Positions 5,068 through 29,100 are shown, counted from the first letter of the stretch. The stretch is DNA of 64,000 nt from Nitrospirota bacterium (GCA_963703955.1 CAVPGK010000017.1:64001-128000), one strand, 5' to 3'. Made by a program: numbers and translations. The notes: generated by a model from the sequence alone, not told the origin.

Positions 5068-5195
5068 ATGACGTTCTGAGCCACGCCGACTGCCCTATTA
5101 CTCGCGCTTCGCGACTCCTCCTCGCGCGATTGATTCTCCAGTCTCCGCCGCTTCCTACGCCAGACTCTCTTTAAAGGCACTGTCATGCCTTTCCG
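5068..5195 (+). ncRNA. Structured RNA/leader family 1, copy A
   Basis: GACTG(5088)/CAGTC(5139) stem enclosing GCGA-CTCCTCC-TCGC hairpin; homologous to copies B-F. Confidence 0.6.
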
Positions 5196-5389
5196 GTCAT
5201 CGGAGGCCAATGCCCTCTTTCTGGCTTGTAATGTGCTCTCCAGGAAAGCAGCATGCCGGACCGCCGCCGCCAATGCGACGAGCGGAATCATACGATGGGC
5301 ATTGGACAAATCCGTTGGCCCTACAAACGACCCGGTAAGGTTATCAAAAGTCGAATCACGGTCTCGCGTAAAAACAAAAGGAGGGCGAC

Positions 5390-5629
5390 ATGAACCACGA
5401 GCAATTCAAACAGAGTTGGTGCCAACTTGAGGGACATCTTAAGAAGCACTGGGGAAAACTCACGAAGGACGATCTTGCACGGATTGATGGCGATTTAGAT
5501 ACATTCAACAGCGCCATCGAACAGCGTTACGGCGAGATGAAGGGAGAGGTCAGCAAGTGGGCGGACCGATGGTATGCCCGGTGGACCGGGTGGTATGAAG
5601 GGTACGAAGAGGCGAAACCGACCTCTTGA
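5390..5629 (+). CDS. CsbD family stress protein
   Basis: W.QL.G.LK..WGKLT.DDL motif; GGAGGG RBS. Confidence 0.85.
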   Translation: MNHEQFKQSWCQLEGHLKKHWGKLTKDDLARIDGDLDTFNSAIEQRYGEMKGEVSKWADRWYARWTGWYEGYEEAKPTS

Positions 5630-5709
5630 CTGGTTGAACCAAGTCCACCGATAAGCCGCTGGATCTCAGGCCTGAATAGCATAAGCACATTGCTTCGGCG
5701 AGGTGCCTC

Positions 5710-6210
5710 ATGAGGACATTGACGATTCTGTTGTGCGTCCTGTTTGTCGGGTGTGCCGGACTGACGGATTTCGGCTTGGCGTCTCAGCACAAAGTCCGTT
5801 GGGGTGAGATCGTCCGGGATGATCGTATCACGGATCAACCGACGGCGAAGGCAGAGCCGGAATATGTCGCCACGAGAGATCATGCGGTCTGGCAGTATTT
5901 TCATGACAGAGGGCGCGACTTCAACAAGCGCGACTGGGAAGTCGTGACTTGGTACGCACATCTCAGCCGTGCGGATCGTCGGCAGGTTGACGCGGAGAGT
6001 GGCCCGGATGACGCGCATGAGACACTCCTGCCGGATAGCCCACCGTCACTGCAGCCCATGGCTGATGTATGGCCGTCGATGGCTCTGGCACCGACGCCGC
6101 TCTATCCCATCGTCCAGGAGCCGACGTTCAATCCTAATCCCGGGTTCACCTGTAGTACGTATAAATTGGGAGGGAGCAGTTCGGCCACCGATTGTTTTTG
6201 GCCACCGTGA
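5710..6210 (+). CDS. Hypothetical lipoprotein
   Basis: Signal peptide with FVGC lipobox; GAGGTG RBS. Confidence 0.6.
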   Translation: MRTLTILLCVLFVGCAGLTDFGLASQHKVRWGEIVRDDRITDQPTAKAEPEYVATRDHAVWQYFHDRGRDFNKRDWEVVTWYAHLSRADRRQVDAESGPDDAHETLLPDSPPSLQPMADVWPSMALAPTPLYPIVQEPTFNPNPGFTCSTYKLGGSSSATDCFWPP

Positions 6211-6245
6211 GCCAACCAGCCGCACGTATTAATGGAGGGAGTGTA

Positions 6246-6515
6246 TTGACTTCCTGCTGGGTGTGGTTATGTCTACTAGGTAGTGGATGAAGCGCTCCGA
6301 TGAAGGGTCGTTGAAATCCCAATCCCCATTCAACCTCGCCTTTTCCCTCGCTTCCACCGAAGTAGACCGAAACGACATGCCGATGAAAAGGTACCGGCGA
6401 CGCTACAGGGCTGCTGGGCTCGCCATTGCAGAATGAGCGCCACGACCGGCTCAACACGGCGAGCAAATCATTCCGAACTCAGTCACGATCTGAGGAAGAA
6501 CCAAAAGGAGAAGGT
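6246..6515 (+). promoter_or_regulatory. Conserved promoter plus 5' leader, family 2, copy 1
   Basis: Homologous to 28680-28921(-); identical 34-nt core and GTTGAA/TTCAAC hairpin. Confidence 0.6.
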
Positions 6516-6956
6516 ATGAATACGAGAAACTTTGTGCTGACGATCGGCATTCTCTATTTACTGGTGGGAGCGCTAGGCTTCCTTCCCGCGCTGGTTTCCG
6601 TGCCACACCCCGGTGCACCCAGTGTGACCGTGGATACTGGTTACGGTTATCTCCTGGGGCTGTTTCCCGTGAACGTGCTCTATAACCTCTTTCACCTCGC
6701 GATCGGAGCCTTGGCGTTCGGCGCCTATCGCAGCCTCTCCAGTTCGACCCTCTTTACACGTGGGGTTGCGATCCTCTTCGGCGTGCTGGCGGTTATGGGA
6801 CTAATCCCGATGTTGAGCACCACCTTTGGGTTGATTCCCCTCTTCGGCCACAATGTATGGCTCCACGCCGCCACGGCGGCGATCGCTGCCTACTTCGGAT
6901 ATGTGCGTGCCGCGGAAGTCCTGCCGCTGGAGTGGGGAGCCAGCCGGGCGTCCTGA
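6516..6956 (+). CDS. DUF4383-like membrane protein
   Basis: LLGLFPVNVLYNLFHLAIG and NVWLH motifs; AAGGAG RBS. Confidence 0.8.
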   Translation: MNTRNFVLTIGILYLLVGALGFLPALVSVPHPGAPSVTVDTGYGYLLGLFPVNVLYNLFHLAIGALAFGAYRSLSSSTLFTRGVAILFGVLAVMGLIPMLSTTFGLIPLFGHNVWLHAATAAIAAYFGYVRAAEVLPLEWGASRAS

Positions 6957-7272
6957 AATCGTGCCGCCGGCAAGCGTCACGGCTTGCCGGCTTCGCCGCT
7001 CCGGCATCGTGGAAGGACCGAAATAGAAATAACAGGGTGAGGTCTCTCGCCCTCATGGACAAAGAGCAGACGGAGGACAGAAGGTCTCGGCAGGTCACGG
7101 AAGTGACCTACCTATTGCTACGGGGAAGGAGCGTTTGTGATCAAATCTGAATTGTTAGAAAAACGGATCTGACAAAAGCGGATTGGTGCAAGAAAGTAGT
7201 GTCGGCGTCATTACGCTTTCGTTGATTTCAAAGAGCGTGAGAGAAGCTGCCGGCCTCTCAATTCTTCGAAAC

Positions 7273-7315
7273 CGAGCAATATTGACCAGACTGCATCTGT
7301 CTACAGGCATATGCT
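7273..7315 (+). promoter_or_regulatory. Crp-like palindrome (7273-7288) plus -10 TATGCT
   Basis: CGAGCAATATTGACCA-GACT; TATGCT at 7310. Confidence 0.65.
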
Positions 7316-7387
7316 CAACAAAGAAGGCGAGTCTTGAAGGAAGCTCATTCCAAGCATGACCCCATAGCGGTCGGTGAGAGAGCGACT

Positions 7388-7462
7388 ACGAGATCCTTAG
7401 CCAGGCTGATTGTCCTCTCATCGCGTTTCTGCTTTGCCCTGCGCGGCGGGTTCCTCGGAGTA
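7388..7462 (+). ncRNA. Structured RNA/leader family 1, degenerate copy E
   Basis: TTAGCCAGGCTGATTGTCCTCTCATCGCGTTTCTGCTTTGCCCTGCGCGG aligns to copy C. Confidence 0.4.
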
Positions 7463-7482
7463 ACGAGTCACAAGGAGCAGCG

Positions 7483-7599
7483 ATGATTAGCATAACGTTC
7501 AAGGAAATCTGGCATGACACCGGCGTAGAGCTCGCACTGGGACTATTCCTATTCGTCATGGTCGTCGGTGCTCTCTTGACGTTCTTGATGTCGGGATAA
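7483..7599 (+). CDS. 38-aa single-TM micro-protein
   Basis: MISITFKEIWHDTGVELALGLFLFVMVVGALLTFLMSG; AAGGAG RBS; resembles 12067-12165. Confidence 0.65.
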   Translation: MISITFKEIWHDTGVELALGLFLFVMVVGALLTFLMSG

Positions 7600-7699
7600 G
7601 GCCGCCGGTGTGTGACGGCAAAGAGACCGGAAGCCCATACGGTCTTTCGAAGGTGACCGATGAGATCTCAAGCAGATTCTGAAGACTAAGGAGAACGAT

Positions 7700-8068
7700 A
7701 TGAATAGCCAACTCACGGCTCATACGCACATCGAGATCACGGAAACGCTGGTCCGGCTGTACGTCTTTCTGGCTCAAGACCTGGACCGCTGTCTGGATGA
7801 GGCTGCCCGCCGAACCTATCCAGAGCAGGAGCTTCAGTCGCATCTCGCTTCAACACGGGCCGAGATAATGGAGATGCTCTCGGTGAACCGGGTGGTCAAG
7901 GAGAAGGTGGAACAAGAGTGTAATCGAGTGCTCTCCCTCGCTGGGGCATGCCTCGCGGACGGAGCCGGAACGACGACGGCGATGGATGAATTGAAAGCGG
8001 CGCGGGCCATGCTGAAAACCAAGACCATGGCCTTGAGTGATTTGCTCGCGGTCTTTCGAGCCGCGTGA
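7700..8068 (+). CDS. Hypothetical helical protein
   Basis: 122-aa ORF with AAGGAG RBS. Confidence 0.7.
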   Translation: MNSQLTAHTHIEITETLVRLYVFLAQDLDRCLDEAARRTYPEQELQSHLASTRAEIMEMLSVNRVVKEKVEQECNRVLSLAGACLADGAGTTTAMDELKAARAMLKTKTMALSDLLAVFRAA

Positions 8069-8131
8069 CAATACGCCAGTTGGTCAGGTGGCAGGGATCA
8101 GAACCTAGGCGAGGTCACCATTTAGGAAGAT

Positions 8132-8265
8132 AAAAGGAGAAGGTATGACCACACGAAACTTTGCCTATTTCGGATAGTGCGGGCGGCGGAAGTCGTGCCG
8201 CTGGAGTGGCAGGCCCATCGGGCGTCCTGAATTCGTGTTGCCGGCCAGCGTCACGGTTTGCCGGC
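8132..8265 (+). pseudogene. Internally deleted copy of the DUF4383 gene
   Basis: RBS and first codons fused directly to the last codons and downstream hairpin of 6516-6990. Confidence 0.7.
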
Positions 8266-8300
8266 CCCATCGAGGAGACAAGAGGAACAGGGAGAGCATC

Positions 8301-8729
8301 ATGAACAACACACGACGGACGTATCTACTGACGCTTAATTCGCCATCCCAAAGAGCCCTTCGGCTCTGGACCGGCCAGAGTATCCATACGCTGCGCCACT
8401 GTTCGGTCAAAGAGATCGGAGGGGCGCTGGTTGAGATGCAAAAGAGTCTGGATGATCTGCAAAAGTCCATGCGGGCGCTTCAACGCGTGAAGGAGCAGTT
8501 GGTGTCTGTGTCGGCGGACGGGGTCGGCGGGACCCGGAAAAAGAACAATGAATCATTGAAGACGGCCGCTCGTGTGAGTGGTCCCGATCAGGGAAGGGCC
8601 TCCAGAGACTCCAGAGAAATGAAAGAGCGGACCATAGGCCGGACGAATCGACGTGGCCCATTCTTTCGGAACATCAGCCAGAAAGGTGATCCTCACGGAG
8701 GGAAGGGCCGAGGAAGGTCCAGGACATGA
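8301..8729 (+). CDS. Hypothetical protein
   Basis: GGAG RBS before MNNTRR; coiled-coil-like middle; 3' end uncertain. Confidence 0.35.
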   Translation: MNNTRRTYLLTLNSPSQRALRLWTGQSIHTLRHCSVKEIGGALVEMQKSLDDLQKSMRALQRVKEQLVSVSADGVGGTRKKNNESLKTAARVSGPDQGRASRDSREMKERTIGRTNRRGPFFRNISQKGDPHGGKGRGRSRT

Positions 8730-8747
8730 AGGGGTTAGGGAGCCAGC

Positions 8748-9023
8748 ATGACGAGTGTTGATCTCGACGATAGCCAAAGACAGGGCCCGACCAATGAAAC
8801 CCCATGGCCCTCTGTCATCAAAGGAGGACCCTATATGATGACACTGCTGACTGCGCTGAAAGAAACCAACGTCCTCCTCGGTGAAGTGGCCATGGACTGC
8901 GAAGGACTCCATCACCTATTTTTGTCGGACCGTCTGCGGCAGCAAGCGAAACACAATCGCGCTGTCATCGCTCGCACCGAGAATGCCGCCCTAACCATCC
9001 GGATCAAGAAAAAAGCAGCGTGA
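8748..9023 (+). CDS. Hypothetical protein (start may be 8835)
   Basis: AAGGAGG RBS before MMTLLTALKE. Confidence 0.45.
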   Translation: MTSVDLDDSQRQGPTNETPWPSVIKGGPYMMTLLTALKETNVLLGEVAMDCEGLHHLFLSDRLRQQAKHNRAVIARTENAALTIRIKKKAA

Positions 9024-9245
9024 CGACCACGAAAACTGGCACAAATACCGGACATATTGAGAGGCAGGAGACCACTCGATGACGAGGAGATCAAACGTTG
9101 AGGCGACCATTGCGTACGTTGGACTAGCCGTGACGGTCTTCGGAATGTTTTGGTGGATGGACCACTACTGGGGAAGCGGCTCTCAGCAGTTCAATCACGG
9201 TGTCGCATAAGAAACAGCGGTGGGTGTCATGAAGGAGGTGGGTCA

Positions 9246-10454
9246 ATGGAAACCACATCAGTCATCGGAACAAAAAATAACAAAGGTCAGGTCTACAGTA
9301 ACCCCCGGGTGATGATGAACGAGGCTCCGCGCACGCCCTCCTTTTTTACCGGCAGCGAAGTCATCAAGGAAGCCGTCAGACGCGCCAATGTGGACGTCAT
9401 GGTTGCCTATCCCATCACACCTCAAAGCGAGGCGGCCGCCCTGTGTGGAGAGCTGTTCGCCGAAGGGTACGTCAAGGAATACTTCCGGGGGGAGAGCGAA
9501 TTTGCGGTGATGTCGCAATGCGCCGGCGCGGCATTCGGCGGCGCCCGCGTGTTCACCACGACGGCTGGTCCCGGCACCATGCGAGCCATGGAAAATTTTC
9601 CGATGTGGGCCGGCGCGAGATTGCCGATCCAGATGATCGTCACGTGCCGCGGCATCAATTCACCCCTCTCGATTCAGCCAGACACCATCGAAATTTCGTA
9701 CCTGCTTCAGACCGGCATGCTGGTCTGGCACGCGGAGACGGCGCAGGACTTCTATGATTGGATCCTCAAGGGCTACATGGTGTCAGAGGAGCCGGATGTG
9801 CATTTGCCGTTGGCCCTCTGCTGCGATGGCTTCTTCGTGACCCATACGAAAGACATCGTCAACCTGACTCCAGTCGATATGTGCCTGCCGCCCTATGATC
9901 CGTACCGGTCACCGGTTCCGTGCATGGACATGGAATGTCCGCCGGTCCGAATGATGCGCGACCCGTTCGTGATGAAGAGCAACTATATCAGCTATGCCAC
10001 GCACGCCAGCTGGCAACAGGAAGTCTGGGCCGCCGTCGAGCGGTCGCGAAAACACACGATCTCCTGGATGGACGGTCTCATCGACACGGAAAACGTCGAT
10101 GCTGATGTCCTGATCGTGTCGTCGGGAACTGCGGTGTCCCAAGGTCGTGAAGCCATCCGCCTGTTGGCCGATGAAGGGATCCGCGTCGGGCTGGTCAAGA
10201 TCAAGGCGTTGCGGCCGTGGCCGGGCGAGGAAATCCGTGAAGCCACCAAGAACGCGAAGTTTATCATTGTGCCGGAGTTCAATGTCGTCGGCTGGATGGC
10301 GCGAGAGATCAAAGCATCCATTCCCAACAGCGAGCGTGTCATCGCCGCGCCGCACGTGTGTGGTGGCATGACAATGCCGCCGGAAGTCATTGTGTTGGAA
10401 ATTAAAAATTTGCTCGGCCTGCGATCCGAGGCGCTGGCCGGACGCAATCGTTGA
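9246..10454 (+). CDS. 2-oxoacid:ferredoxin oxidoreductase alpha subunit (ForA/PorA type)
   Basis: AYPITPQSE and TTTAGPG motifs; AGGAGG RBS. Confidence 0.92.
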   Translation: METTSVIGTKNNKGQVYSNPRVMMNEAPRTPSFFTGSEVIKEAVRRANVDVMVAYPITPQSEAAALCGELFAEGYVKEYFRGESEFAVMSQCAGAAFGGARVFTTTAGPGTMRAMENFPMWAGARLPIQMIVTCRGINSPLSIQPDTIEISYLLQTGMLVWHAETAQDFYDWILKGYMVSEEPDVHLPLALCCDGFFVTHTKDIVNLTPVDMCLPPYDPYRSPVPCMDMECPPVRMMRDPFVMKSNYISYATHASWQQEVWAAVERSRKHTISWMDGLIDTENVDADVLIVSSGTAVSQGREAIRLLADEGIRVGLVKIKALRPWPGEEIREATKNAKFIIVPEFNVVGWMAREIKASIPNSERVIAAPHVCGGMTMPPEVIVLEIKNLLGLRSEALAGRNR

Positions 10455-10534
10455 ATCTGGAAACCCGGGGGGATTGACGGGTGGTTCACCTAACACGCAA
10501 CAATTGACATCAGCAGCGCTGTGAGGAGGCATTC

Positions 10535-11441
10535 ATGAGTAGAGAGCGAATCAAAATTGCGCCAGAGTTCTTCGACATCATGCCGCCTGAGTACCAGGAT
10601 TTGGTCACGAAGGCGACCTACGGCAATGAGAGCCGTGGCTGGAAGGACATCGGGACAAGTAAGGAATTGATTGAAGAGCATGCCCTCTGCGCTGGGTGCC
10701 CGGAATCCATGGCGTTTCGATACATTCTCGCCTCTCTTCCCAATCCCGAGGACACGGTCATGGTGGGGTCGACCGGCTGCACCAGCCTGGTCTTTCCGCA
10801 CGTCGCCATCCACAATATCCACTCGCTGTTCGGAAATCAGAACGCGATAGCCTCCGGCCTCAAGCGGGCCTTGACCGTCCGCTTCCCGGGCCGAATCAAG
10901 GACGTCGTCGTGCTGGCCGGCGATGGCGCAACGGTGGACATCGGACTGGACATGACCCTGCAGGCGTGGTTCCGTCAAGAGAAATTCACCACCATCTGCT
11001 TCGACAACGAGTTGTATGCGAACACCGGAGGCCAGGAAAGCGGGCTGATGCAAAAGGGCTTCGTGGCCAAAATGGCCCCGATGGGAAAGAGTTTTGAGAA
11101 GGTGCGCCTTCCGGAAATTGCGCGTGAATCAGGCTGTCACTATGTCGTGAACTGCACGGTGAGCAAGCCCTCGCTCGTTGAGAAAGTCATCAGGAATGCG
11201 GTCCTGGTGGCGCGAGAAATTGGTCCCACCTATCTCGCAGCTCTACACCCCCTGCATTTTGGAGATCGGGAAGGACAGCATGGAGGGCCTTCAGGAGATG
11301 CGTGACTCGGAAAGGCCGAGCGAACGGTTCGCGTATAAGGAGTACATCAGCGAGCCGGCGAAGCAGCTCTTAACTGAAATCGCCGCCAAGGACAAGGAAA
11401 AGAAGGCCGTCGCGAAGCAGTTGGTGTCCCAGGAAGCGTAA
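10535..11441 (+). CDS. 2-oxoacid:ferredoxin oxidoreductase beta subunit (probably ForB type), apparent +1 frameshift at ~11236
   Basis: CAGC, GDG and NTGGQ TPP motifs; GPTYL continues as QLYTPCILEIG in the next frame. Confidence 0.88.
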
Positions 11442-11461
11442 GAAATAGGGCTAAATAGCGG

Positions 11462-11490
11462 TTGACTCGGCTGCCTATTGCGCGTAGGGT
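11462..11490 (+). promoter_or_regulatory. sigma70-like promoter for structured RNA copy D / erpA
   Basis: TTGACT-17-TAGGGT. Confidence 0.6.
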
Positions 11491-11496
11491 GAGGCT

Positions 11497-11605
11497 ATGG
11501 TGTGTTAAGCTTCGCTGACTGTCCTATCTCTCGCGTCTGTCCCGCGACCGATCCCCAGTCTCCGCTTCCTGCACCGTTTCTTTCAAGGGCGCTTTCATTG
11601 CCATT
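11497..11605 (+). ncRNA. Structured RNA/leader family 1, copy D
   Basis: GACTG(11517)/CAGTC(11556) stem with TCGCG-TCTGTCC-CGCGA hairpin. Confidence 0.55.
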
Positions 11606-11714
11606 GTATGACCGGAGGCGACTGCCGCGTTCTGGTTTCCAGAGGGGTGTCTCTACACATGGGCGGTTGAGGCGCGTCGGGCGCTCCAGTCAATCAGAAA
11701 AAAGGGGGAGAGTG

Positions 11715-12035
11715 ATGATTACGATAACGTCGATGGCTGAAGAGAAGATTCGGGAACTCATGCTGGAGGAGAAGGACACGATTGGTCTGCGAGTGTTCGT
11801 GAAAGGCGGAGGCTGTCATGGGTACCAATACGGGATGTCGTTCGAATCCAACATGAGCGAGGACGATACGGTGATTGAGAAAGGTGATGTGAAGGTCATT
11901 ATGGATTCGCAAAGCGCCCCGCTGCTGAGCGGCGCCGAGGTCGATTATCTGGAAAGCTTGCAGGGCTCCGGCTTTGCGATCAAGAACCCGCAAGCGAAGA
12001 CGACCTGCGGGTGCGGCAGTTCATTCAGCGCCTAA
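11715..12035 (+). CDS. erpA: A-type Fe-S carrier (ErpA/IscA, HesB family)
   Basis: GGC.G.QY and TCGCGSSF motifs. Confidence 0.9.
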   Translation: MITITSMAEEKIRELMLEEKDTIGLRVFVKGGGCHGYQYGMSFESNMSEDDTVIEKGDVKVIMDSQSAPLLSGAEVDYLESLQGSGFAIKNPQAKTTCGCGSSFSA

Positions 12036-12066
12036 CCGCATCGCATCCTGTCGTCAGGAGGGGAAG

Positions 12067-12165
12067 ATGAACTTCGTGCGCCACATGGCCCCAGAGCTCT
12101 CAGTGGGATTGTGTTTACTCCTGATGTCCGGCGCGATCCTCGTGACATTCTTTCTGTCTCGATAG
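12067..12165 (+). CDS. 32-aa single-TM micro-protein
   Basis: MNFVRHMAPELSVGLCLLLMSGAILVTFFLSR; AGGAGG RBS. Confidence 0.6.
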   Translation: MNFVRHMAPELSVGLCLLLMSGAILVTFFLSR

Positions 12166-12318
12166 CGGCACGTCAATGAGAGTGGAACCCCCATGGCCAT
12201 TGCGTGAGACCGGATCCTGAGAAGCTCAGGTTGGGGGTAGAAGCCGATTCAGGAGCGGGAACGATGGGAATGGGATTGTTTTGGTTGGATACTAGATAGA
12301 GCGGAGAAAATAATAACG

Positions 12319-12636
12319 ATGATGATCATGAACACGATTTCAACAGCCGTATCAGAGCAACGGCCGATTGCCGACCGGATTCTTGAAGAGGTCCGGCGCG
12401 CTCCTGATTGCGAACTCGATGCCTTGGTGCTGAGTCTCCCGGAAGTAGCCTGGCAAGATGTGTTACTCGAAGTGCATCGGTTGAGCACCACGGGGCAAGT
12501 GCAGGTGAGCCCGTGGGGCGCGGGCATCTACACCGTCAGAGTGACAACTGAACTCGGCACGAGCAACGGTCTTATGCCCACGCAGGGTGGCGTGACCATT
12601 CGTCAGGTGGCAACACCCTGGCATCCTGCAAACTGA
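12319..12636 (+). CDS. Hypothetical protein, possibly winged-helix-like
   Basis: Protein-like ORF (WQDVLLEVHRLS..GQV); GGAG RBS. Confidence 0.55.
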   Translation: MMIMNTISTAVSEQRPIADRILEEVRRAPDCELDALVLSLPEVAWQDVLLEVHRLSTTGQVQVSPWGAGIYTVRVTTELGTSNGLMPTQGGVTIRQVATPWHPAN

Positions 12637-12681
12637 CAATTCATTAGCAAACGTTCGTCCAGAGAGAGGGAGGGTTAGTAG

Positions 12682-13572
12682 ATGAGTCTGAACTATGTGA
12701 AATTTACCCCGGGCTTTGAACCGTTTATGCCGAAGGAATACCGGGATATGGTTGAGCATGGCCCCTTCGGGAAAAAGGTCACAGTGTCGCAGATGGGCAG
12801 CTTCAAGGAGATCCTTGAGGAGCATCCTATGTGCGCGGGCTGTGCCATGACGCTCTTTATCCGTCTGGCTATTATTTCATTCCCCAATCCGGAAGATACG
12901 ATTACGGTGGGGACGGCGGGCTGCGGACGCTTGGCAATATCTCAAGCCGCCATCCCGTTTGTGTACGGGAATTATGGGGATCAGAACGGAGTGGCGAGTG
13001 GACTCTCTCGGGGCCTGCGGCTTCGGTTTGGAGACAAGCCGAAGGATGTGGTCGTGATGGCCGGGGACGGCGGTATGGCGGATATCGGTTTCTCGGTCAC
13101 ACTTCACTCCTGGTTCCGCAAGGAGAAGTTCACCACGATCATGCTGGACAACGAGGTGTACGGGAACACCGGCGGGCAGGAGAGCGGGATGACCAATCGA
13201 GGCGCGGTGCTCAAGATGGCTCCCCTCGGAAAGAAATTCGAAAAGATGGACATGGTAACGATGGCGAAGGTCGCCGGTTGTGCGTACGTGGCGACCGTAG
13301 TCCCCAACAATCCGCGGCGCGTGGAAAGCGTCATCAAGAAGGCGGTGCTGATCGCCCGAGAGGTCGGGCCGACCTACATTCAGGCGTACACCTCGTGCAA
13401 TATCGAATACGCGATTCCGACGGATAAGGTCATGGAAGACGCCAAGAACGTCGAGGACGACCGGTATAAGTTCACCGAGTATGTCAGCGACGAGGCGAAG
13501 GCGTATCTCACGGACCGGTACGGGTACAAGGAGTTCCAACCAAAGCCGGCCGCGTCGATCGCGAAGGCATGA
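12682..13572 (+). CDS. 2-oxoacid:ferredoxin oxidoreductase beta subunit (probably PorB type)
   Basis: HPMCAGC, GDGG and NTGGQ motifs. Confidence 0.92.
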   Translation: MSLNYVKFTPGFEPFMPKEYRDMVEHGPFGKKVTVSQMGSFKEILEEHPMCAGCAMTLFIRLAIISFPNPEDTITVGTAGCGRLAISQAAIPFVYGNYGDQNGVASGLSRGLRLRFGDKPKDVVVMAGDGGMADIGFSVTLHSWFRKEKFTTIMLDNEVYGNTGGQESGMTNRGAVLKMAPLGKKFEKMDMVTMAKVAGCAYVATVVPNNPRRVESVIKKAVLIAREVGPTYIQAYTSCNIEYAIPTDKVMEDAKNVEDDRYKFTEYVSDEAKAYLTDRYGYKEFQPKPAASIAKA

Positions 13573-13593
13573 GGGTGGAAGGAGGGTGAGGAT

Positions 13594-13980
13594 ATGGCAT
13601 ACAGCGAAAAAGTGGTGGACCATTTCAGCAACCCACGCAACGTGGGCAGTTTCAAGAAGGATGAGCTGGGCGTGGGGACCGGGATTGTCGGGGCGCCTGA
13701 GTGCGGCGACGTCATGAAGCTGCAAATCAAGGTGCGGGACGAAAAGATCGTGGATGCGAAATTCAAAACCTTCGGCTGCGGATCGGCTATCGCCAGCTCC
13801 AGTCTTTCCACAGAATGGCTGAAGGGGAAGACGATCGAGGAAGCGGGCATGATCAAGAATACGGACATCGTGCAGGAACTGAATCTGCCGCCCGTCAAGA
13901 TCCACTGCTCGGTCCTGGCCGAGGATGCCATCAAAGCGGCCGTGGCCGACTACAAACAGAAATCTGTTGTGACTGTCTAA
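13594..13980 (+). CDS. iscU: Fe-S cluster scaffold IscU
   Basis: GAPECGD, FGCGSAIASSS, LPPVKIHC. Confidence 0.97.
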   Translation: MAYSEKVVDHFSNPRNVGSFKKDELGVGTGIVGAPECGDVMKLQIKVRDEKIVDAKFKTFGCGSAIASSSLSTEWLKGKTIEEAGMIKNTDIVQELNLPPVKIHCSVLAEDAIKAAVADYKQKSVVTV

Positions 13981-14008
13981 GAAGAATCACAATGGTAGGA
14001 GGAGGATC

Positions 14009-14419
14009 ATGGCGGACTTAAAAGAAAGCCTCACACTCGCTATGGAACCGAGAGTCCTGACATCCGATCAGAAGAAAGCGGCGGAGGCGGCATTTGGCGG
14101 TCTGCCCTGCGATCCGAAGTGGTCGGTCACGGCTCGCGCTGTCTATGATGGGCTGGTGACCGCGCTCCAGGGCAAGACCGTTCAAGACCCGACTCATGAG
14201 TCCGTCCCATCGGGCCCCCAATATACGCTGGGGTATGGCATGCGGCTGGATAAGGGCACGGCTCCCGAACTGGCGCACCCCCAGGTGTCCGTCACGCTGC
14301 CGGATGGATCGGAAGGACGCATGACGTTGCACGTCATGAACGGCACGCCGGATGAAATCAAGGCCCGGTTACTTGACAGCGTGGATGCCTTTTTTGACAT
14401 TTATGCCGAAGGCCCCTGA
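14009..14419 (+). CDS. Hypothetical protein
   Basis: GGAGG RBS; directly follows iscU. Confidence 0.7.
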   Translation: MADLKESLTLAMEPRVLTSDQKKAAEAAFGGLPCDPKWSVTARAVYDGLVTALQGKTVQDPTHESVPSGPQYTLGYGMRLDKGTAPELAHPQVSVTLPDGSEGRMTLHVMNGTPDEIKARLLDSVDAFFDIYAEGP

Positions 14420-14431
14420 GCCATACAATCC

Positions 14432-14877
14432 TTGACCGAGGCCAAAGAGCCGCTGGACGGTTTTCGGAAGCCTTGTGAGATACGACGGACCATGCAGACG
14501 CTCGATATTGATCGTCCCGACATGCCCGATCTTCAGTTCGTCCTGTTGGTGACGGCGCTCTGCACCTCACGGCTTTCGCAGTTCAACGTGCCGGAGGCGT
14601 TGCGCGCCACGATTTTCGACCGGTGCTGGACGCTCATTGATGATGGTCCTCCGCCCACCATGCTGGAGGAGCGGGTCCTGGACCTGCGACCCTGGACCGA
14701 GGTGACGCTCGAGGCGATGGCAGAGACCATCCGCAGGGTGCTCGACGGAGGCGGGCATCCGAACGTTGACCTGGGATCATCCGCCCAGCGAGCCGACACG
14801 GTCCAGCACGCTTCGAAGCCCAACCCCTGATCGAACGCCTCGGGCAACTCTATCCTCAGCCCCCTGGGGGCTACTAA
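14432..14877 (+). CDS. Hypothetical protein with two apparent +1 frameshifts (~14743, ~14815)
   Basis: ...TIRRVL continues as TEAGIRTLTWDHPP and then EAQPLIERLGQLYP after removing single bases. Confidence 0.55.
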
Positions 14878-14937
14878 CAGCGGCCGCTTCTTCACGAACA
14901 GCAATGAGTAGGCTGCGCCCAACAAGGGAGAATTCGA

Positions 14938-15204
14938 ATGGACACCGAAGACAATAATGTCAGGCAGATAGTCGATCAGATTGCCACGTTGATGACAGCG
15001 TTCTCAGCGGCACTGGAAGGTCGCGCAGTGGAAATCCGGGCGAGTGGAAAAGATGTCGAGTTGGGCGACAAGCTCGTCAAGGGCGCCGATGTCATGCGAG
15101 ATAGTAGAGACATCTATTTGTCGTGGGCGCGCCATTATGTCGCGCTATCTGAAGGCAAACCCGAAGCCGCTGAAGATGAGGATGAGGTCGAGTTCGGCGT
15201 GTGA
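14938..15204 (+). CDS. Hypothetical acidic protein
   Basis: 88-aa ORF with GGAG RBS; 3' part duplicated at 28023-28215. Confidence 0.7.
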   Translation: MDTEDNNVRQIVDQIATLMTAFSAALEGRAVEIRASGKDVELGDKLVKGADVMRDSRDIYLSWARHYVALSEGKPEAAEDEDEVEFGV

Positions 15205-15269
15205 ATGTTCCTGTCGTCGCGAATGCGGGGCCCCGGCAGATCGGCATGAGTGGAGGTCTCTTCGTCAAT

Positions 15270-15397
15270 GCCGGCTCAGAGAGAGGGATCGTCGTCTCAC
15301 GCCGGAAGAAGTCGCTCGTCTTCAACGGACTCATGCTGACGCCTACAAACGCCAGGTCAAACAAGTCCGTCCGCTGCCTGGCGCGCGAGAGCTCTGA
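15270..15397 (+). pseudogene. Possible HAD-hydrolase relic
   Basis: LTPEEVARLQRTHADAYKRQVKQVRPLPGAREL resembles the HAD cap/core junction. Confidence 0.45.
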
Positions 15398-15444
15398 CCC
15401 ATTTGTCATGAGCGAAGGTGCCCTATGCGGTGGTTCTTGAAACC

Positions 15445-15487
15445 TGAGCAATCTTGACCAGACTGCATTGGCTCAGAGGTATACCCT
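15445..15487 (+). promoter_or_regulatory. Crp-like palindrome (15445-15460) plus -10 TACCCT
   Basis: TGAGCAATCTTGACCA-GACT; TACCCT at 15482. Confidence 0.7.
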
Positions 15488-15542
15488 CTAGCTAGATCGC
15501 CACGAGATCGTGAATCACATTTGCGGAAAAGGAGAATCACGA

Positions 15543-15821
15543 ATGCTGCCTGAACGCGTTCGGTGGTTTCGGAGATGGTATGGCCGTCAAGGGACTGAGA
15601 ACATGCCCCCCGGAAGTCCGGATGAGGTGAAACTGGATACTATCGGCCCAGCCTTTGACCGGGCTGTGGCTCGTAAGAAGGCCCGAGAGGATCTCCAGGC
15701 CACCAGGAAGTACCAAGGGACTCGCGACGACTTGTCGCTCTTCCTGCCACCGCCGCTCGATAATGGGCCATTGGCCTGGACAACGAGACGAGGAGCTGCG
15801 GCAAGGAGGATCGACCCCTAA
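15543..15821 (+). CDS. Hypothetical protein
   Basis: AAGGAG RBS; directly downstream of a motif promoter. Confidence 0.5.
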   Translation: MLPERVRWFRRWYGRQGTENMPPGSPDEVKLDTIGPAFDRAVARKKAREDLQATRKYQGTRDDLSLFLPPPLDNGPLAWTTRRGAAARRIDP

Positions 15822-15917
15822 AAATGTTAACGGAACTGAGACGGGGGCGGTTGAGGCCGCTTTGATTGCATCTCGGGCAGCTCTTTCGCACCATCATTAA
15901 TTTTTCAAGACCAGGGA

Positions 15918-16737
15918 TTACAAGGCATCCTGCGCACACCGGATGCCCACAAATGGGGCTTTGTTCGCAGGAAAGTAACTGTCCCGGAAAGTGGATTTCA
16001 CCATTTCCTTGGAGTCAGCGAACGACCCACCTCGGATCGCCTTTTGTGTGCCGTGAGAGGGGCCCTTCGGATTGCTGTCCGGGCTTGTTGCGTAATATTC
16101 TTCGTCGTACCAGTCCGCCACCCACTCCGCGGCGTTTCCCGCCATGCCGTAGATCCCATGGGGACTCTTGCCCCCCTCGTCGCTATCCACCGGCCTTAGA
16201 TTGTCATTATATCGGGTGCCTGAAAAGGGCTTATTGTAATTCGTCAGTTTAGAAGAAGGGGCTGCGTTTCCCCAGGGGTAACTGCGGCCGTCCATCCCTC
16301 GTGCTGCTTTCTCCCACTCAGCCTCAGTAGGGAGACGCTTTCCGGCCCAGCGACAGTAGGCTTCGGCTGCGTTCCAGCTGACACCGATCACCGGCCTATC
16401 CCCATCGTGGGACAGCTGGATGTCAGCCCAAGACATCGGCACAAATCCAGGTTCAGGCCGGTCCAGTGGCTGCTAAGAATGTCGCATAGCGCGCTGCTGT
16501 CACCTCATAGAGGTCCATATAGAACGCGTACAGGTACACTCCGTGGGCCGGCTTGCCCCTGTAGGATCGTTCTTGGCTCCCCATCATAAATCCCCCGTCT
16601 CGGATCCAAGCCATTGGGGCTCCATTCTTACGAGCCTCGGCCTCCAACGCTCGGCGAGTCTCGGCTACCGTGGGGATAGTCGGACTGAGAGCAGCAAGCC
16701 CGGCCAGAATCGTCATGGTAAGAGCGAAGCGTCGCAT
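15918..16737 (-). CDS. Secreted FGE-sulfatase (SUMF1/EgtB/PvdO) domain protein, apparent +1 frameshift at ~16460
   Basis: Signal peptide; [39 protein letters not shown]. Confidence 0.85.
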
Positions 16738-16895
16738 GGGAGACCTCCAATGTTCAATGCGGTTAAAAATGTTACATGCCGTAAAAATGTCGCATAATGT
16801 GGTTTTACCCCGGCCAGGCAGGCCCGCTCTACGAAGCCATGGGCTCAAAATTGGCGAGCGTTAGGAGATCGTCAATGGGCGAGCATGTTAGCAGC

Positions 16896-16938
16896 ATTAT
16901 GCCTATAGGACCGATCGCAGTCTGTTCAGTATTGCTCA
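16896..16938 (-). promoter_or_regulatory. Crp-like palindrome (16923-16938) plus -10-like CATAAT
   Basis: Minus strand TGAGCAATACTGAACA-GACT. Confidence 0.6.
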
Positions 16939-16991
16939 ATTTGAAGACGGATACGGTCACCTCTGGCCTCCGGTTTGAAATCTTCGAAACA

Positions 16992-17035
16992 AGAGCAATT
17001 TTGACCAGACTCCTTTCCACCCAGAGGTATAGCAT
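16992..17035 (+). promoter_or_regulatory. Crp-like palindrome (16992-17007) plus -10 TAGCAT
   Basis: AGAGCAATTTTGACCA-GACT; TAGCAT at 17030. Confidence 0.65.
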
Positions 17036-17184
17036 TGAGGGAGGTATCGTTGCGTCACGGATGCGAAGGAGGAGTCCCTCGATGTACTACTGCTGTCGAT
17101 GTAGCAAAGACACAATGGAAGACAGCGCTTCAACATGGGGCACTGACATGTTCTCCCGTCCCCAATGAAGCGACGCATGACACC

Positions 17185-17312
17185 ATGACGTTCTAAGCCA
17201 CGCCGACTTTCCTATCGCTCGCGCGCATCTTTTCCTGCGCGTCTGATTCTCGAGTCTCCGCTGCTTTCTACGCCACAGTCTCTTTGAAAGGGGGCGGCTT
17301 TCACTGCCTTTA
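17185..17312 (+). ncRNA. Structured RNA/leader family 1, copy B
   Basis: GACTT/GAGTC stem with CGCGCA-TCTTTTCC-TGCGCG hairpin; closest to copy A. Confidence 0.6.
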
Positions 17313-17394
17313 AGTTCTTGTGCGCGTAGGGCTGCTGTATCTGCCCAGAGGATCTCTTGCTCGCCCACGTCTTCTGACAAGAGGAGGAACGGAG

Positions 17395-17616
17395 ATGCGC
17401 TGCGAACGCTGTGACGGTCTCATGGTGATGGACCACTATATCGATATGGTGGGCGGAGGACCATGGCTGAAGGCATGGCGGTGCATGTGCTGCGGAAATG
17501 TGGTCGATAACCAAATCAAGGCACATCACTTCGCTGCCGATCCACAGGTCCACAGGCGACGGAGCTTGCGTAAATTTCAAGAAGAAGGGAGACTTCAACC
17601 AGCGGTTTGGCTGTGA
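17395..17616 (+). CDS. Small CxxC...W.CxxCG Zn-ribbon protein
   Basis: MRCERCDGLM...WRCMCCGNVVD; GAGGAGG RBS region. Confidence 0.75.
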   Translation: MRCERCDGLMVMDHYIDMVGGGPWLKAWRCMCCGNVVDNQIKAHHFAADPQVHRRRSLRKFQEEGRLQPAVWL

Positions 17617-17677
17617 TCGCCGTTACGTCCGCCATTCGTTTGCAAGACGAGATCATAGAGGCCTGCGGGCAAGAACG

Positions 17678-17783
17678 AGAATACCAACATCGTGCAGGAG
17701 CTGAATCTTCTGCCTGTGAAGATCTACTGCTCGGTGCTGGCGGACGATGCGATTAAGGCAGCTTGGATGACTACAAGAAATCC
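17678..17783 (+). pseudogene. iscU 3' relic
   Basis: NTNIVQELNLLPVKIYCSVLADDAIKAA matches the IscU C-terminus at 13594-13980. Confidence 0.75.
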
Positions 17784-18119
17784 GTGGAACCCAAAGTCAC
17801 AAACAAACGACAAGCGGTGTCGAGCTGAAGACGCTTCCGGCGATTCGTTTGCGATTTCGCCAACTGAGAGTTCAACGCGGAAGGATGTAGAAATCAATAG
17901 CAAACGCAGCAGTGAAAGGGAAAGCGCCGTGATGACGAAGGTGCGACGGGTGGCGAGGCGCAAGAGCGCACGGGCCGCAGGGAGGGCGAAATCTTTAGGA
18001 TCAATGCCAATCCCTTAATCCGTCTCGCGTGCGTCCTTCTGGATGGGGGATAATCGGCGGCGGCTGGCTGAAAGTGGTCAATTCATGGCCGGTAGGAGCG
18101 AGTTGCCTGAGGAGGAAAG

Positions 18120-19169: not shown

Positions 19170-19212
19170 AGATAAACGGCTTTGTCTAGGTCAGATGATG
19201 CACCAGTCTGAG

Positions 19213-25356: not shown

Positions 25357-25477
25357 GCCGCCTCTCAGGGCCGACGGCGGAACCGCTTTTTCTCTAAAGC
25401 GCTTTGCGTCCGAAGCGTCCGGAACGGTAGAAAACAGCCTGTCTATGGGAAGAGCCGTGAATGCCATAAATCCTGTG

Positions 25478-25681: not shown

Positions 25682-25743
25682 TCGTCATGGGAGAGCTTTG
25701 TGACGGATCAGGGTTGAGGCTAGATCTCCTTGGAGAAGATTGG

Positions 25744-26199: not shown

Positions 26200-26349
26200 G
26201 ACATTGCTCCTTTTCCTCGAGTCGTCCTTTCAGTGTCAGTGCTCAACTTAGATGCATCAGGACGATTCAGCGTCGACACCACTTAATGGGGGAAGCACGT
26301 AAGGGGGAGGCTAATCTGGGAAGGCCTCCCCTCTCGCGTCAACAGGGCG

Positions 26350-26679
26350 CTACTGCTTGGGCATGCGAGTCGCCTCAGTGACCGGCGGCTCAATCTTGAT
26401 GTTCGGCCCTTCAACCGTCGGCAGTTGGCCGGCTCCCTGCGGCTTCACCAGCCTGGCATTATTGGGATCCACCAGTGTCTGGCCCGTGTGCGCATCCTCT
26501 GACGTCGCAGCTGCCCTGAGGGATTGCTCAAGGGTCAGATTCTTTTGCCCGCTATCGTTGGCATACTCTCCGCCCGACGGATACCCGGGATGCTTGGGCA
26601 GCATCGAGGGATTCGCGGAGGCGAGAGAAGCAGCCCCTACCAGCACGAGCCCTGTCATCACCATCGTATAGAGTTTCAT
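26350..26679 (-). CDS. Secreted hypothetical protein
   Basis: Signal peptide ending ASA-NPSMLPKHPGYP; AAGGAG RBS. Confidence 0.75.
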   Translation of the reverse strand: MKLYTMVMTGLVLVGAASLASANPSMLPKHPGYPSGGEYANDSGQKNLTLEQSLRAAATSEDAHTGQTLVDPNNARLVKPQGAGQLPTVEGPNIKIEPPVTEATRMPKQ

Positions 26680-26719
26680 GACCTGCACTCCTTTCATTGA
26701 GAACACCATTACCTCCTCG

Positions 26720-26796
26720 CCATGGACGATCCCAACCCAGGCTAGTACGTAAAGTCCCACTGAGAGCTCTGGTCCGATGTCGCGCCAAACCTGCGT
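26720..26796 (-). pseudogene. Degenerate copy of the PELSVGL micro-protein gene
   Basis: AAGGAGG then ACG in place of ATG; 18-nt identity CCAGAGCTCTCAGTGGGA with the 12067 gene. Confidence 0.5.
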
Positions 26797-26941
26797 CTTA
26801 CCTCCTTCTTTCCTGTTCAGACTCAGACCGTAGTGGGTGTCCTGAATTGCCATCTCTCATCACCGGTGGAGGATCTTGACTCCGGCGTTGCTTCAACCAG
26901 AGACAGTGTCACTTTCGCGTCCCCTTGCAGTGGAGACCGCC

Positions 26942-27142
26942 CTACTGCACCAGCGAAACACCGTATCGAGGACGACCCTGGCTCCGCGTCGGTATGTGGA
27001 GACCTTTCCGATTCGCGTCAATTACCGAATCGATCACCTCACCACACAGCAGGCATTGCCAGCCGGAGAAGCAGAGTGTCGAGCTTCCCGCATCCTCCAA
27101 CCGGATGGTCACCATCAGACCCTGACAACGAAGGCAGTTCAT
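26942..27142 (-). CDS. Small CxxC...W.CxxCG Zn-ribbon protein
   Basis: MNCLRCQGLM...WQCLLCGEVID; GAGGT RBS. Confidence 0.75.
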   Translation of the reverse strand: MNCLRCQGLMVTIRLEDAGSSTLCFSGWQCLLCGEVIDSVIDANRKGLHIPTRSQGRPRYGVSLVQ

Positions 27143-27314
27143 GAGTTGACCTCTGGGGCTCACAACACAGCTTAAGGTTTCGGCACGCCCTAACCGACGC
27201 CTACACCGTCCACGAAGCATGGCAGACGGCCAGGGACCCCGCCAATTTGAGACCCGTCCTCCGAGACACGAACGGCGCCGTTCTGCTGTGCAAAAGCGAT
27301 AAAATCAGTGCTGA

Positions 27315-27410
27315 AGTCTGGCGTTGGAGCGGCGGAGACTGGAGATCGGTCGCGCTAGGAAGGACCGGGAAACGCGAGGGATAGGACAGCCAGCGTGGCT
27401 GAAACGTCTC
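27315..27410 (-). ncRNA. Structured RNA/leader family 1, copy F
   Basis: Minus strand GGCTG/CAGTC stem, ATC/GAT, TCGCGT/GCGCGA hairpin; preceded by TTGACT-18-CAATAT (27446-27417). Confidence 0.6.
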
Positions 27411-28022
27411 TGATGTATATTGCGCGTGAAGGGGCAGCTTAGTCAAGCGGTATTAATCGGGGCTGTGATAGCAGGTGTTGTCGCACTATTCTTATTTATG
27501 CAACCTTCGCTGGACCCATGCCCACCTTTCTATTCTCGGAGAGCCATTTTCTGTGAGGCTCTTGGCAATTCAAACCGCATGGTTCGCAAATTGTTCAGTT
27601 CGGGGACCTTGGTCAAGACCCGAAGCATTGCTCAGCTTTTCTGTAACCAGTTCCAACATCGTTTACTCACTCACTGACCAAATGGAAGTATGGTGACTCA
27701 CAATCTCGGTTTAATCTCGGTTCCCGCACATCGGCCATTAGCACGCCCTGCATTAATCCTGGTCCGATTCCGTATGGCATTGGTGGCTTCCCTCCTTGAT
27801 GTCGGCCCGACGAGCCAGGCCCCCCGCTCACGTATTCACCACCACCTTGCGACCCGCGCTGTTGCGAAAGTCGAGCTGAGGATAGCAAGATCTTGCGCTG
27901 AGGCGCCTTGTTTGGACCTGGCCAACTCCTGCACACACGATGTCCGGTTGATGTCTTCCGGTGGGTCATGCGGCCTTCACCAGCAGGTCAATGGTAAAGC
28001 TGAGAAGTCGTTCCGTAGTCTG

Positions 28023-28245
28023 AGGTCGCGCAGTGGAGATCCAGGCGAGTGGAAAAGATGTCGAGTTGGGCGACAAGCTCGTCAAGGGCGCCGATGTCAT
28101 GCGAGATAGTAGAGACATCTATTTGTCGTGGGCGCGCCATTATGTCGCGCTATCTGAGGGCAAACCCGAAGCGGCTGAAGATGAAGATGAGGATGAGGTC
28201 GAGTTCGGCGTGTGAATGTTTACTGTCGTCGAGAATATGGGCCCC
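28023..28245 (+). pseudogene. Near-identical 5'-truncated duplicate of 15018-15234
   Basis: Direct DNA match including stop codon and downstream bases; one extra DE repeat unit. Confidence 0.8.
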
Positions 28246-28514
28246 CGTCTCAGGTCCGTTAACATTTCTAGGGGTCGATCCGGGTCAGGGGTGGGATTGG
28301 GAACTGGCGCAGGATTCGGATTGGGAAGTGGAGGTCCGGGAAATGGATTCGGATCGGGTGGAAGCGGAGGCGGCTCGGGCTGGGGACTCGGCTCTAAGAG
28401 AGGGGAGACAATGTGAAACATGCTCAGCTCGCTCTTAATGTTGCAGGGCGGTCGCGAGGTGATCGGACGTATCCGATAACTGAAAATGTTTCGCACTGAG
28501 CCGGAACCAGGTGT

Positions 28515-28679
28515 TCATGTTGACTCACCATCCGACAGAAGGGCGTCAACCTCGGCTTCGCTACACGTCAGACCCTCGACTCCACGTCTAGGTGAGCGGG
28601 AGCCTGCACGTTTGAGCGATTTGTTGAACAGATGGTCTTTAGGTTGTTCTGCTTCCGCTTCAGAGCTGATTGCCATCAT
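28515..28679 (-). CDS. 54-aa hypothetical micro-protein
   Basis: AAAGGAGAA RBS at the end of leader family 2; MMAISSEAEAEQPKDHL... Confidence 0.4.
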   Translation of the reverse strand: MMAISSEAEAEQPKDHLFNKSLKRAGSRSPRRGVEGLTCSEAEVDALLSDGEST

Positions 28680-28921
28680 TGGTTCTCCTTTCGTCGGTTA
28701 CTGGAGGAACAGGTAACTCTGCTCTCGTGAGCCGGCCACGGCGGCCACTCTGCAATGGCGAGTCGATCGCCAGACACGTACATGGCAGTTTTTTCGTTTC
28801 GTTCTACTGTGGGAGCCGAGGAAAAAGGAGAAGTTGAAGGCGAAATTGGGATTTCAACGACCCTTCATCGGAGCGCTTTACCCACGATGGGAAGACATAA
28901 CCACACATAGCAGGAAGTCAA
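28680..28921 (-). promoter_or_regulatory. Conserved promoter plus 5' leader, family 2, copy 2
   Basis: Reverse-complement homolog of 6246-6515. Confidence 0.6.
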
Positions 28922-28957
28922 CGGCGGAATACGCAGTTTTATCGATCAATATATCGC

Positions 28958-28986
28958 TTGACGGCCCCGCTCTTTGCGCCTAGCAT
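28958..28986 (+). promoter_or_regulatory. sigma70-like promoter for structured RNA copy C
   Basis: TTGACG-17-TAGCAT. Confidence 0.65.
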
Positions 28987-28992
28987 CCATCT

Positions 28993-29100
28993 ATGACGTG
29001 TTAAGCCCCGCTGGCTGTCCTGTCCTTCGCGCTTTCTGATTCTTCCTGCGCGACCGATTTCCCAGCCCCGCCGCTTCTACGCCATGGTTGCTTTGTAACG
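28993..29100 (+). ncRNA. Structured RNA/leader family 1, copy C
   Basis: GGCTG(29013)/CAGCC(29063) compensatory stem; TCGCGC/GCGCGA hairpin. Confidence 0.6.

Follow-up and report, generated by a model that had tools for sequence, protein, structure and literature searches.

A pyrimidine-rich RNA rod upstream of small stress-type genes: a candidate cis-regulatory leader family in Nitrospiria

In Escherichia coli, the pgaA and cspA/B/G leaders keep a Rho utilization (rut) site masked, and opening by CsrA or CspA exposes it, as outlined in PMC12360218. Alphaproteobacterial cuckoo RNAs, as portrayed in PMC4615179, consist of 2–4 adjacent hairpins with variable stem sequence and CCUCCUCCC in each loop, and the FopS small RNAs (sRNAs) of Bacteroides, treated together with RbpB in PMC11697453, carry a single-stranded seed and an intrinsic terminator and act in trans. 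The Streptococcus YjbJ motif WRC-39-1 is depicted in PMC11109978 as two hairpins plus a terminator, about 30 nucleotides (nt) from the Shine-Dalgarno sequence (SD) and found in Streptococcus only. The bacterial small signal recognition particle (SRP) RNA (RF00169) is a rod of ~100 nt with paired ends and symmetric internal loops. Here we analyse an element that shares features with each of these, in a 64,000-nt stretch of Nitrospirota bacterium (GCA_963703955.1 CAVPGK010000017.1:64001-128000; "the window", with coordinates counted from its first letter). Sequence comparison solidly supports it as a real, lineage-specific and apparently undescribed family of cis-regulatory RNAs, and we put at about 0.85 the probability that this rod of ~95 nt is a cis-acting leader defining a post-initiation regulon in Nitrospiria.

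Like the pgaA and cspA/B/G leaders, as PMC12360218 outlines them, the rod lies in a long untranslated leader, forms a structured C-rich tract and has no intrinsic terminator; opening by an RNA-binding protein is a further likeness that is here only proposed. Those leaders are gene-specific, whereas one sequence-conserved rod serves 18 gene families here, with Rho proposed to act on it. The preliminary description of this DNA had invoked a cuckoo-like multicopy sRNA, and copy number, a C/U-rich hairpin loop and a stress context are indeed shared with the RNAs portrayed in PMC4615179. The comparison goes no further: the element is one long rod with conserved stems rather than 2–4 hairpins, CCUCCUCCC occurs in 2/200 loops, the copies stand at mRNA 5′ ends, terminators are not in excess, and no Hfq was found in 6 genomes. 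With FopS/RbpB, in the account of PMC11697453, the rod has in common a paralogous RNA family in a lineage with RRM proteins, whereas it has no terminator and would act in cis. WRC-39-1, on the evidence of PMC11109978, likewise stands before a CsbD-like gene as a candidate cis motif, and is set apart from the rod by description, not by sequence. Unlike SRP RNA, the rod has pyrimidine-only loops and, searched on both strands at E≤10, matched nothing in Rfam, and the real SRP RNA of the window lies at 51115-51214(+). An Rfam 15 search, read at both the gathering score and E≤10, returned nothing that overlaps any tested copy, in agreement with the initial impression that the family is not a described one. 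Full-text literature searches brought up no paper on a Nitrospira RNA motif or on RNA-level regulation in this genus, and the main texts of two genome-wide motif surveys do not mention Nitrospira; an entry in a motif catalogue is possible.

The anatomy of the element was defined on 200 distinct copies, obtained from two alignments (A5, 128 rows from 100 fetched loci, omitting near-duplicate loci and the loci of one unpublished genome; A6, 75 rows) less 3 identical rows. Position +2 pairs with the 3′ end (about +95), and six short helices, none longer than 6 bp, are separated by symmetric loops of fixed size: P1 (UG/CA plus CGU/ACG), P2 (RAGC/GCUY), P3 (CG/CG), P4 (GACUG/CAGUC), P5 (AUC/GAU) and P6 (UCGCGC/GCGCGA). 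P4 had originally been taken for the outer stem; three further helices lie outside it, and the element is therefore one unbranched rod of 95–99 nt. The compensatory and wobble changes quoted for the stem pairs are present in the copies. From P2 to P6 the loops measure 2x2 (186/200), 2x2 (192/200), 4x4 (195/200) and 2x2 (189/200); 93% of their nucleotides are pyrimidines and hardly any purine is conserved, and at five of the ten positions C-C is the most frequent opposition (48–78%). The terminal loop (6–26 nt, mode 16; consensus UUCCU-GAUYC-YUYCY) varies by downstream gene family and resembles the 16S tail of the same genome. Its description as anti-SD-like stands in part: UUCC and UCCU are enriched (UCCU in 135 copies against 70 after shuffling, UCCUUCC in 41 against 4.0), while the full anti-SD CCUCCU occurs in only 25/200 (11 shuffled). 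This architecture, a long rod with strictly sized pyrimidine-only loops and no conserved unpaired purines, its helix sequences and loop sizes conserved before 18 gene families in at least two orders, is unusual.

In an alignment of 126 distinct rows (A3, of which two are antisense and one is cut), pairing held in 93.2% of cells and 21/25 pairs showed a double change; slid controls paired in 24–47%. The 75 copies collected with a sequence pattern that does not touch P1–P3 were 91.1% paired, with 13/25 pairs changed on both sides, and 13 sister-family copies were 92.2% paired. When changes were placed on a tree of all 200 copies, both columns of a pair changed along one branch in 88 instances, where 29.8 were expected, including 54 events from one Watson-Crick pair to another; for P2–P6 alone there were 34 joint changes against about 11 expected. 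The alignments were fitted to the structure model, which flatters P1 most. The covariation first noticed in a handful of copies is thus upheld in a larger alignment. As for the strand, G-U outnumbers A-C among the pairs both in cells (358 vs. 99) and in tree events (150 vs. 60). Compensatory changes and the G-U bias together support selection on the structure on the promoter strand. An RNA with GGA repeats from the antisense strand is disfavoured by the same bias and by the count of strict antisense promoters (0/142).

Within the window, the five copies reported earlier as intact were recovered at E-values of 1e-17 to 1e-26 with a profile made from these five (Table 1). All fit one fold, as had been proposed, and each alone folds into the same rod (z against shuffles −2.6, −4.0, −2.9, −1.4 and −3.1 for copies 1, 3, 4, 5 and 6). 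The copy at 7388, reported as degenerate, is a marginal relic that both covariance models missed; it has no fold signal (z +1.5 against shuffles). A profile search from the five copies detected 11 copies with E≤2e-16 in the window genome, plus one more with 3e-5, and covariance models R1 and R2 each give 12, of which eight lie on the window contig within 63 kb, two on contig C15 and two on C13. The genome also holds truncated or half rods at C10:32666-32738(-), C17:30773-30816(+) and C11:169216-169264(-): one is a short rod whose promoter is intact, and the other two are remnants of the 3′ arm located at the stop codons of an FmdB-type and a Crp-type gene. At loci L026, L063 and L024 divergent rods stand in pairs 200–350 nt apart, each with its own downstream gene.

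Four copies had been placed behind sigma70-like promoters, and these promoters were found, each 6 nt before the element. Across the family, a strict TTGAC-16..18-TAnnnT promoter, modally 6 nt upstream, precedes 93/142 copies (from 148 rows, after removal of 2 that were antisense, 1 that was cut and 3 duplicates) compared with 11/11000 random anchors, and 134/200 copies of the full set. The rod promoter is of the housekeeping type, because the same type precedes 8 tRNA genes in the window genome. The relic and copy 4 had been said to follow Crp-motif promoters. A Crp-like motif is present in both cases, but neither copy starts at +1, since the −10 hexamers (7310-7315 and 17030-17035) end 72 and 149 nt before the rod. 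In these two and in two others of the genome the proximal promoter has decayed and the Crp-like motif lies further upstream. The motif, named Crp by resemblance only, has 9 genomic copies with class-II spacing, the site lying 21–22 nt before the −10. A further putative Crp-like site lies in the window at 3859-3874(-) and a Crp-family gene at 4140-4631(-); before some genes of the same families, such as a gene for a 47-amino-acid (aa) protein (C11:161109(-)), a Crp-like promoter takes the place of the rod promoter. RNA contigs X1–X3 and X6 account for the larger part of 5047-18000 and for a small part of 4600-5046. Copy 4 and its gene lie on a single RNA-library contig (17058-17591); this is weak evidence because contigs show neither strand nor ends.

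For 179/200 copies, the gene that follows on the same strand belongs to one of 18 recurring protein families and lies a median of 126 nt past the rod. CsbD-like genes are the most frequent (37), followed by a secreted-looking family (23), Zn ribbons (18), DUF1328 (17), a 47–64-aa helical protein (16), winged-helix proteins (12) and ErpA (11); FmdB, fatty-acid desaturase and histidine kinase are among the others, and single copies sit before an RRM, a Crp and a LuxR gene. In the window the CsbD, erpA, Zn-ribbon and small membrane genes are as originally named. Between rod and gene there was no second strict promoter (0/179) and no excess of intrinsic terminators (9/179 vs. 11.2 shuffled); the terminator-like hairpin at 17290-17311 is not general among the copies. 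The rod looks like a shared on/off switch for small, stress-type mRNAs.

Masking of the gene's own ribosome-binding site, either as a thermometer, which the preliminary description had suggested, or by another form of SD sequestration, is very unlikely. SD bases do pair with rod bases in the full leader (mean probability 0.35), but a shuffled rod pairs with them more (0.44); the SD lies a median of 126 nt past the rod, and its predicted accessibility is flat from 10 to 50 °C (0.32–0.36). The terminal loop shows no preference for its cognate site, at −9.6 kcal/mol with its own ribosome-binding site, −10.0 with others and −9.7 for a shuffled loop.

If the rods were a mobile repeat they should resemble one another within a genome; this expectation can be set against their nearest neighbours. 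The nearest neighbour of a copy shares its downstream family in 62/90 cases (8.6 expected) and its genome in 7/90 (2.5 expected), and within one genome, copies that precede different genes resemble each other no more closely than pairs drawn at random. Copies therefore track the downstream gene and not the genome, as an old cis-leader would, and not a cuckoo-type sRNA or a mobile repeat. The motif has thus long been retained independently at many genes, which implies that these share a trans factor or signal and again argues against a mobile repeat. Promoters, same-strand genes, covariation and this neighbour test together support the original view of a structured RNA at transcript starts that serves as a cis-regulatory leader. 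A non-functional repeat, a miniature inverted-repeat transposable element (MITE) or a protein-gene relic is already largely refuted, and we regard this reading as close to negligible. Copies do cluster in gene islands and half-copies exist, but the rods show compensatory changes, follow gene families as MITE- or repetitive extragenic palindrome (REP)-like elements would not, and were not found in IMG/VR or plasmids. The relic of a protein gene, raised at the outset, fails because no reading frame is kept across the 200 copies (span modulo 3 = 38/59/103; best frame open in 110/200).

Table 1. Features of the window discussed in the text
Feature	Coordinates	Strand	Basis or remark
Rod copy 1	5068..5166	+	all 25 model pairs formed
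Relic of rod, 5′ arm and inner stem only	7388..7457	+	nhmmer E 0.13 / 0.059; no covariance-model match
Rod copy 3, short-loop variant	11497..11583	+	fold and alignment
Rod copy 4	17185..17279	+	24/25 pairs
Rod copy 5	27315..27410	-	fold and alignment
Rod copy 6	28993..29088	+	all 25 pairs
Sigma-70-type promoter, copy 1, TTGACA-18-TAGCCT	5032..5061	+	sequence
Sigma-70-type promoter, copy 3, TTGACT-17-TAGGGT	11462..11490	+	sequence
Sigma-70-type promoter, copy 5, TTGACT-18-CAATAT	27417..27446	-	sequence
Sigma-70-type promoter, copy 6, TTGACG-17-TAGCAT	28958..28986	+	sequence
Putative Crp-family-like class II promoter (site, 21 nt, -10 TATGCT)	7273..7315	+	resemblance
Putative Crp-family-like class II promoter, upstream of copy 4	16992..17035	+	resemblance; proximal sigma-70 promoter decayed
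CsbD-like gene, 223 nt past copy 1	5390..5629	+	PF05532 E 4e-10, 39.9 bits, just under cut-off 40
38-aa hydrophobic open reading frame (ORF) after relic	7483..7599	+	no Pfam or NCBIfam match
erpA, 131 nt past copy 3	11715..12035	+	NF010147 over cut-off
Small winged-helix family gene	12319..12636	+	relatives are the next gene after 12 rods elsewhere
Zn-ribbon-type small gene, 115 nt past copy 4	17395..17616	+	invariant cysteines
Zn-ribbon-type small gene, 172 nt past copy 5	26942..27142	-	invariant cysteines
64-aa ORF, hydrophobic N-terminal segment, 76 nt past copy 6	29165..29359	+	no family match

In the genomes sampled, the family occurs in a few related lineages. R1 matches 48/60 genomes of the window genome's family (a tally that includes two unpublished genomes) with 1–6 copies each; R2 matches 21/26 genomes of that family, 6/6 in a family of another order and 1/12 in a sister family, and found no match in 14 other families of the class. 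In a sample of the phylum, 16/120 genomes match, all within these lineages, and in another family of the order the element is present in 4/5 genomes. Among the 80 matches listed from a pattern scan of GTDB, 74 were titled Nitrospira, Nitrospiraceae, Nitrospirales or Nitrospirae/Nitrospirota, 4 "uncultured bacterium", 1 Deltaproteobacteria and 1 archaeon. The deltaproteobacterial match (L141) is probably a mis-binned contig, because its rod is near-identical to that of L091 and precedes the same DUF1328-type gene; the archaeal match (L210) was rejected as a family member, as it fails the covariance model.

As to how such a leader might work, we tentatively favour a protein-gated Rho attenuator, at somewhat short of even odds; every step past "cis leader" is our inference. 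Pyrimidine-pyrimidine mismatches in every internal loop would keep both arms C-rich, so that the same 95 nt could form a closed rod or, when opened, a rut-like tract that is C>G and YC-rich (Y, pyrimidine). With the rod closed, transcription would continue into the gene; an RNA-binding protein would open it, and Rho would then load and terminate in the 50–200-nt untranslated spacer. The opening protein could be an RRM chaperone encoded beside rods or a co-distributed 47-aa helical-hairpin protein, and the signal is probably general or cold stress. Several properties are consistent with this proposal. The rod is C 0.38 and G 0.22, its YC content is 0.24 per nt vs. 0.14 in the flanks, and this composition stands at the 97th percentile of genomic windows. 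It is about as long as a rut site and is followed by an untranslated runway. Its predicted probability is 0.75 alone and 0.32 in the full leader, indicating that it is metastable in context, and Rho is present in 40/40 genomes. CsrA is unlikely as the partner because GGA occurs in just 4/200 loops on the structured strand; csrA was found in 5/5 relatives and not in the window genome, which is 82% complete.

Two candidate partners emerge from co-location and co-distribution, in counts where kin are not independent. An RRM gene lies within 2 kb of a rod in 11/22 genomes (0.47 expected), in varied arrangements, with two rod-positive genomes lacking listed coordinates omitted; UCCUUCC occurs in 14/30 RRM leaders (0.3 shuffled). 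RRM genes are present in 41/42 genomes, with or without the rod. Bacteroides RRM proteins, according to PMC13370968, are cold chaperones with feedback through their own 5′ UTRs (untranslated regions). The 47-aa protein is found in 29/44 rod-positive and 2/36 rod-negative genomes (19/33 vs. 0/15 within the family), a distribution nested inside that of the rod, and its gene lies within 2 kb of a rod in 21/30. It belongs to a group of predicted two-helix hairpins of 47–64 aa, with 64–89% identity across orders and 1723 relatives in the protein collection (examples at L299:2310-2450 and C11:160972-161109(-)). No significant Foldseek, PDB-sequence, Pfam or NCBIfam match was obtained, and a Rop-like identity, suggested by a resemblance, was accordingly dropped.

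Several observations weigh against this proposal or parts of its foundation. Covariation in P1 leans on the structure-fitted alignment, folding energies do not separate the strands (z −2.2 vs. −2.1), and the RNA data are contigs, from which transcript start, strand and level cannot be read. At the 97th percentile, the enrichment in C and YC is not extreme; near-invariant helix sequences exceed what a rut site needs; and some copies are just 25–52 nt from the start codon, which is short for Rho. Rho is present in all 5 rod-negative genomes tested and RRM genes occur regardless of the rod, so that neither distribution sets rod-bearing genomes apart. Of the 44 rod-positive genomes, 15 lack the 47-aa protein, some of them with 4–6 copies, and it is thus a core regulon member and not an obligatory partner. 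Finally, the genomes behind the co-location counts are kin, and a common location in gene islands may account for these figures.

Part of this evidence would be expected equally of a leader that works without Rho. A protein or a double-strand RNase could read the irregular helix and set mRNA stability or translation, and the paired 5′ end would also shield the mRNA from 5′-dependent decay. The conservation of helix sequences and loop sizes across 18 gene families, pairing that begins at +2, and the same RRM and 47-aa partner evidence fit such a leader; it does not by itself explain the C-richness of both arms, and no helix reaches beyond 6 bp. We consider it rather unlikely.

The mismatches themselves could carry the signal. 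In an orphan riboswitch or physico-chemical sensor, stacked C-C, U-C and U-U mismatches would bind an ion or proton or respond to temperature, with rod stability as the signal. The prevalence of C-C oppositions would suit this reading, as would the cis position at the 5′ end with a covarying and strongly conserved structure and the stress-type targets. It is nevertheless improbable: the unpaired nucleotides, nearly all pyrimidine, are unlike those of metabolite aptamers, no shared expression platform (terminator or SD-sequestering alternative) was found, and the targets suggest no single metabolite. A combination with the Rho attenuator, in which protonation of or ion binding to the ~ten conserved pyrimidine-pyrimidine mismatches, C-C for the most part, zips and unzips the Rho-loading site so that the rod itself is the sensor, seems to us slightly less probable again. 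If it were true, a nitrifier would run a general-stress regulon of 18+ gene families by one RNA motif with no alternative sigma factor.

It is similarly improbable that the rod is released by Rho or cleavage as a stable multicopy sRNA whose C/U loop pairs with SDs in trans or titrates a protein. The loop's likeness to the 16S tail and the 1–12 copies per genome are what one would expect of it, and paralogous sRNA families of Bacteroides act with an RRM protein, as described in PMC11697453. Rods are, however, nearly always upstream of a same-strand gene, and their loops differ by gene family over the whole size range; no Hfq was found in the 6 genomes cited above, and there is no terminator of their own, although ends made by Rho or by cleavage would be compatible with that.

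Soils, aquifers and waterworks harbour Nitrospira that perform nitrite oxidation and comammox. The motif defines, by sequence alone, a candidate regulon (CsbD, DUF1328, ErpA, desaturase and a dozen unnamed small proteins) and so offers a testable lead on stress handling in these slow-growing organisms; the rod is small enough for probing, structure work and E. coli reporter tests. The work also highlights the unstudied 47-aa protein and a second new leader motif on RRM genes.

This second leader, which is unrelated, is a predicted rod of ~125 nt with GAUGUUG/AGACAA closing words and UCCUUCC, and stands before RRM genes across the order (loci L265-L294; in the window genome C11:11329-11177(-), C13:55049-54904(-), C17:163044-162896(-) and C10:8434-8557(+)). 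In the window genome it also precedes a gene whose product resembles an FKBP-type isomerase. There was no Rfam match in 10 loci and no cross-match between this motif and the rod, so that homology of the two was rejected; it is a separate new motif, possibly a cold-shock leader.

Some details concern the genes near the rods. The Zn-ribbon label rests on four invariant cysteines, with a Pfam E of 0.004 for just one of the two window genes, and the corresponding profile is uninformative as a distribution marker, matching 80/80 genomes. The winged-helix family at 12319-12636(+) is Nitrospirota-specific, with DUF2582 as the nearest named family and several paralogues in rod islands. A Z-RNA idea, based on the alternating CG helix and the winged-helix gene, was abandoned: the modelled protein has a generic winged-helix fold, nothing matched it at E≤0.001, and Z-alpha domains came at ranks 45 and 48. 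Expression rows for N. moscoviensis (PMC6606698; rbpA rank 15, erpA 2 rank 43, DUF1328 zero) are not tied to rods and were not used. A leaderless 3-codon ORF occurs in 50/134 promoter-bearing copies; 58 have no start codon, and half of those keep the stop triplet too. Copy 3 lies inside a region (9246-13980) in which genes for a 2-oxoacid:ferredoxin oxidoreductase alpha subunit and two thiamine pyrophosphate (TPP)-binding subunits are interleaved with erpA and IscU/NifU_N, and a tRNA-Val is located at 56758-56829(-). At L012:3484-3711(+), a small protein with an arginine/lysine-rich stretch, a possible RNA binder, is encoded behind a divergent rod variant, and it is found behind 3 rods.

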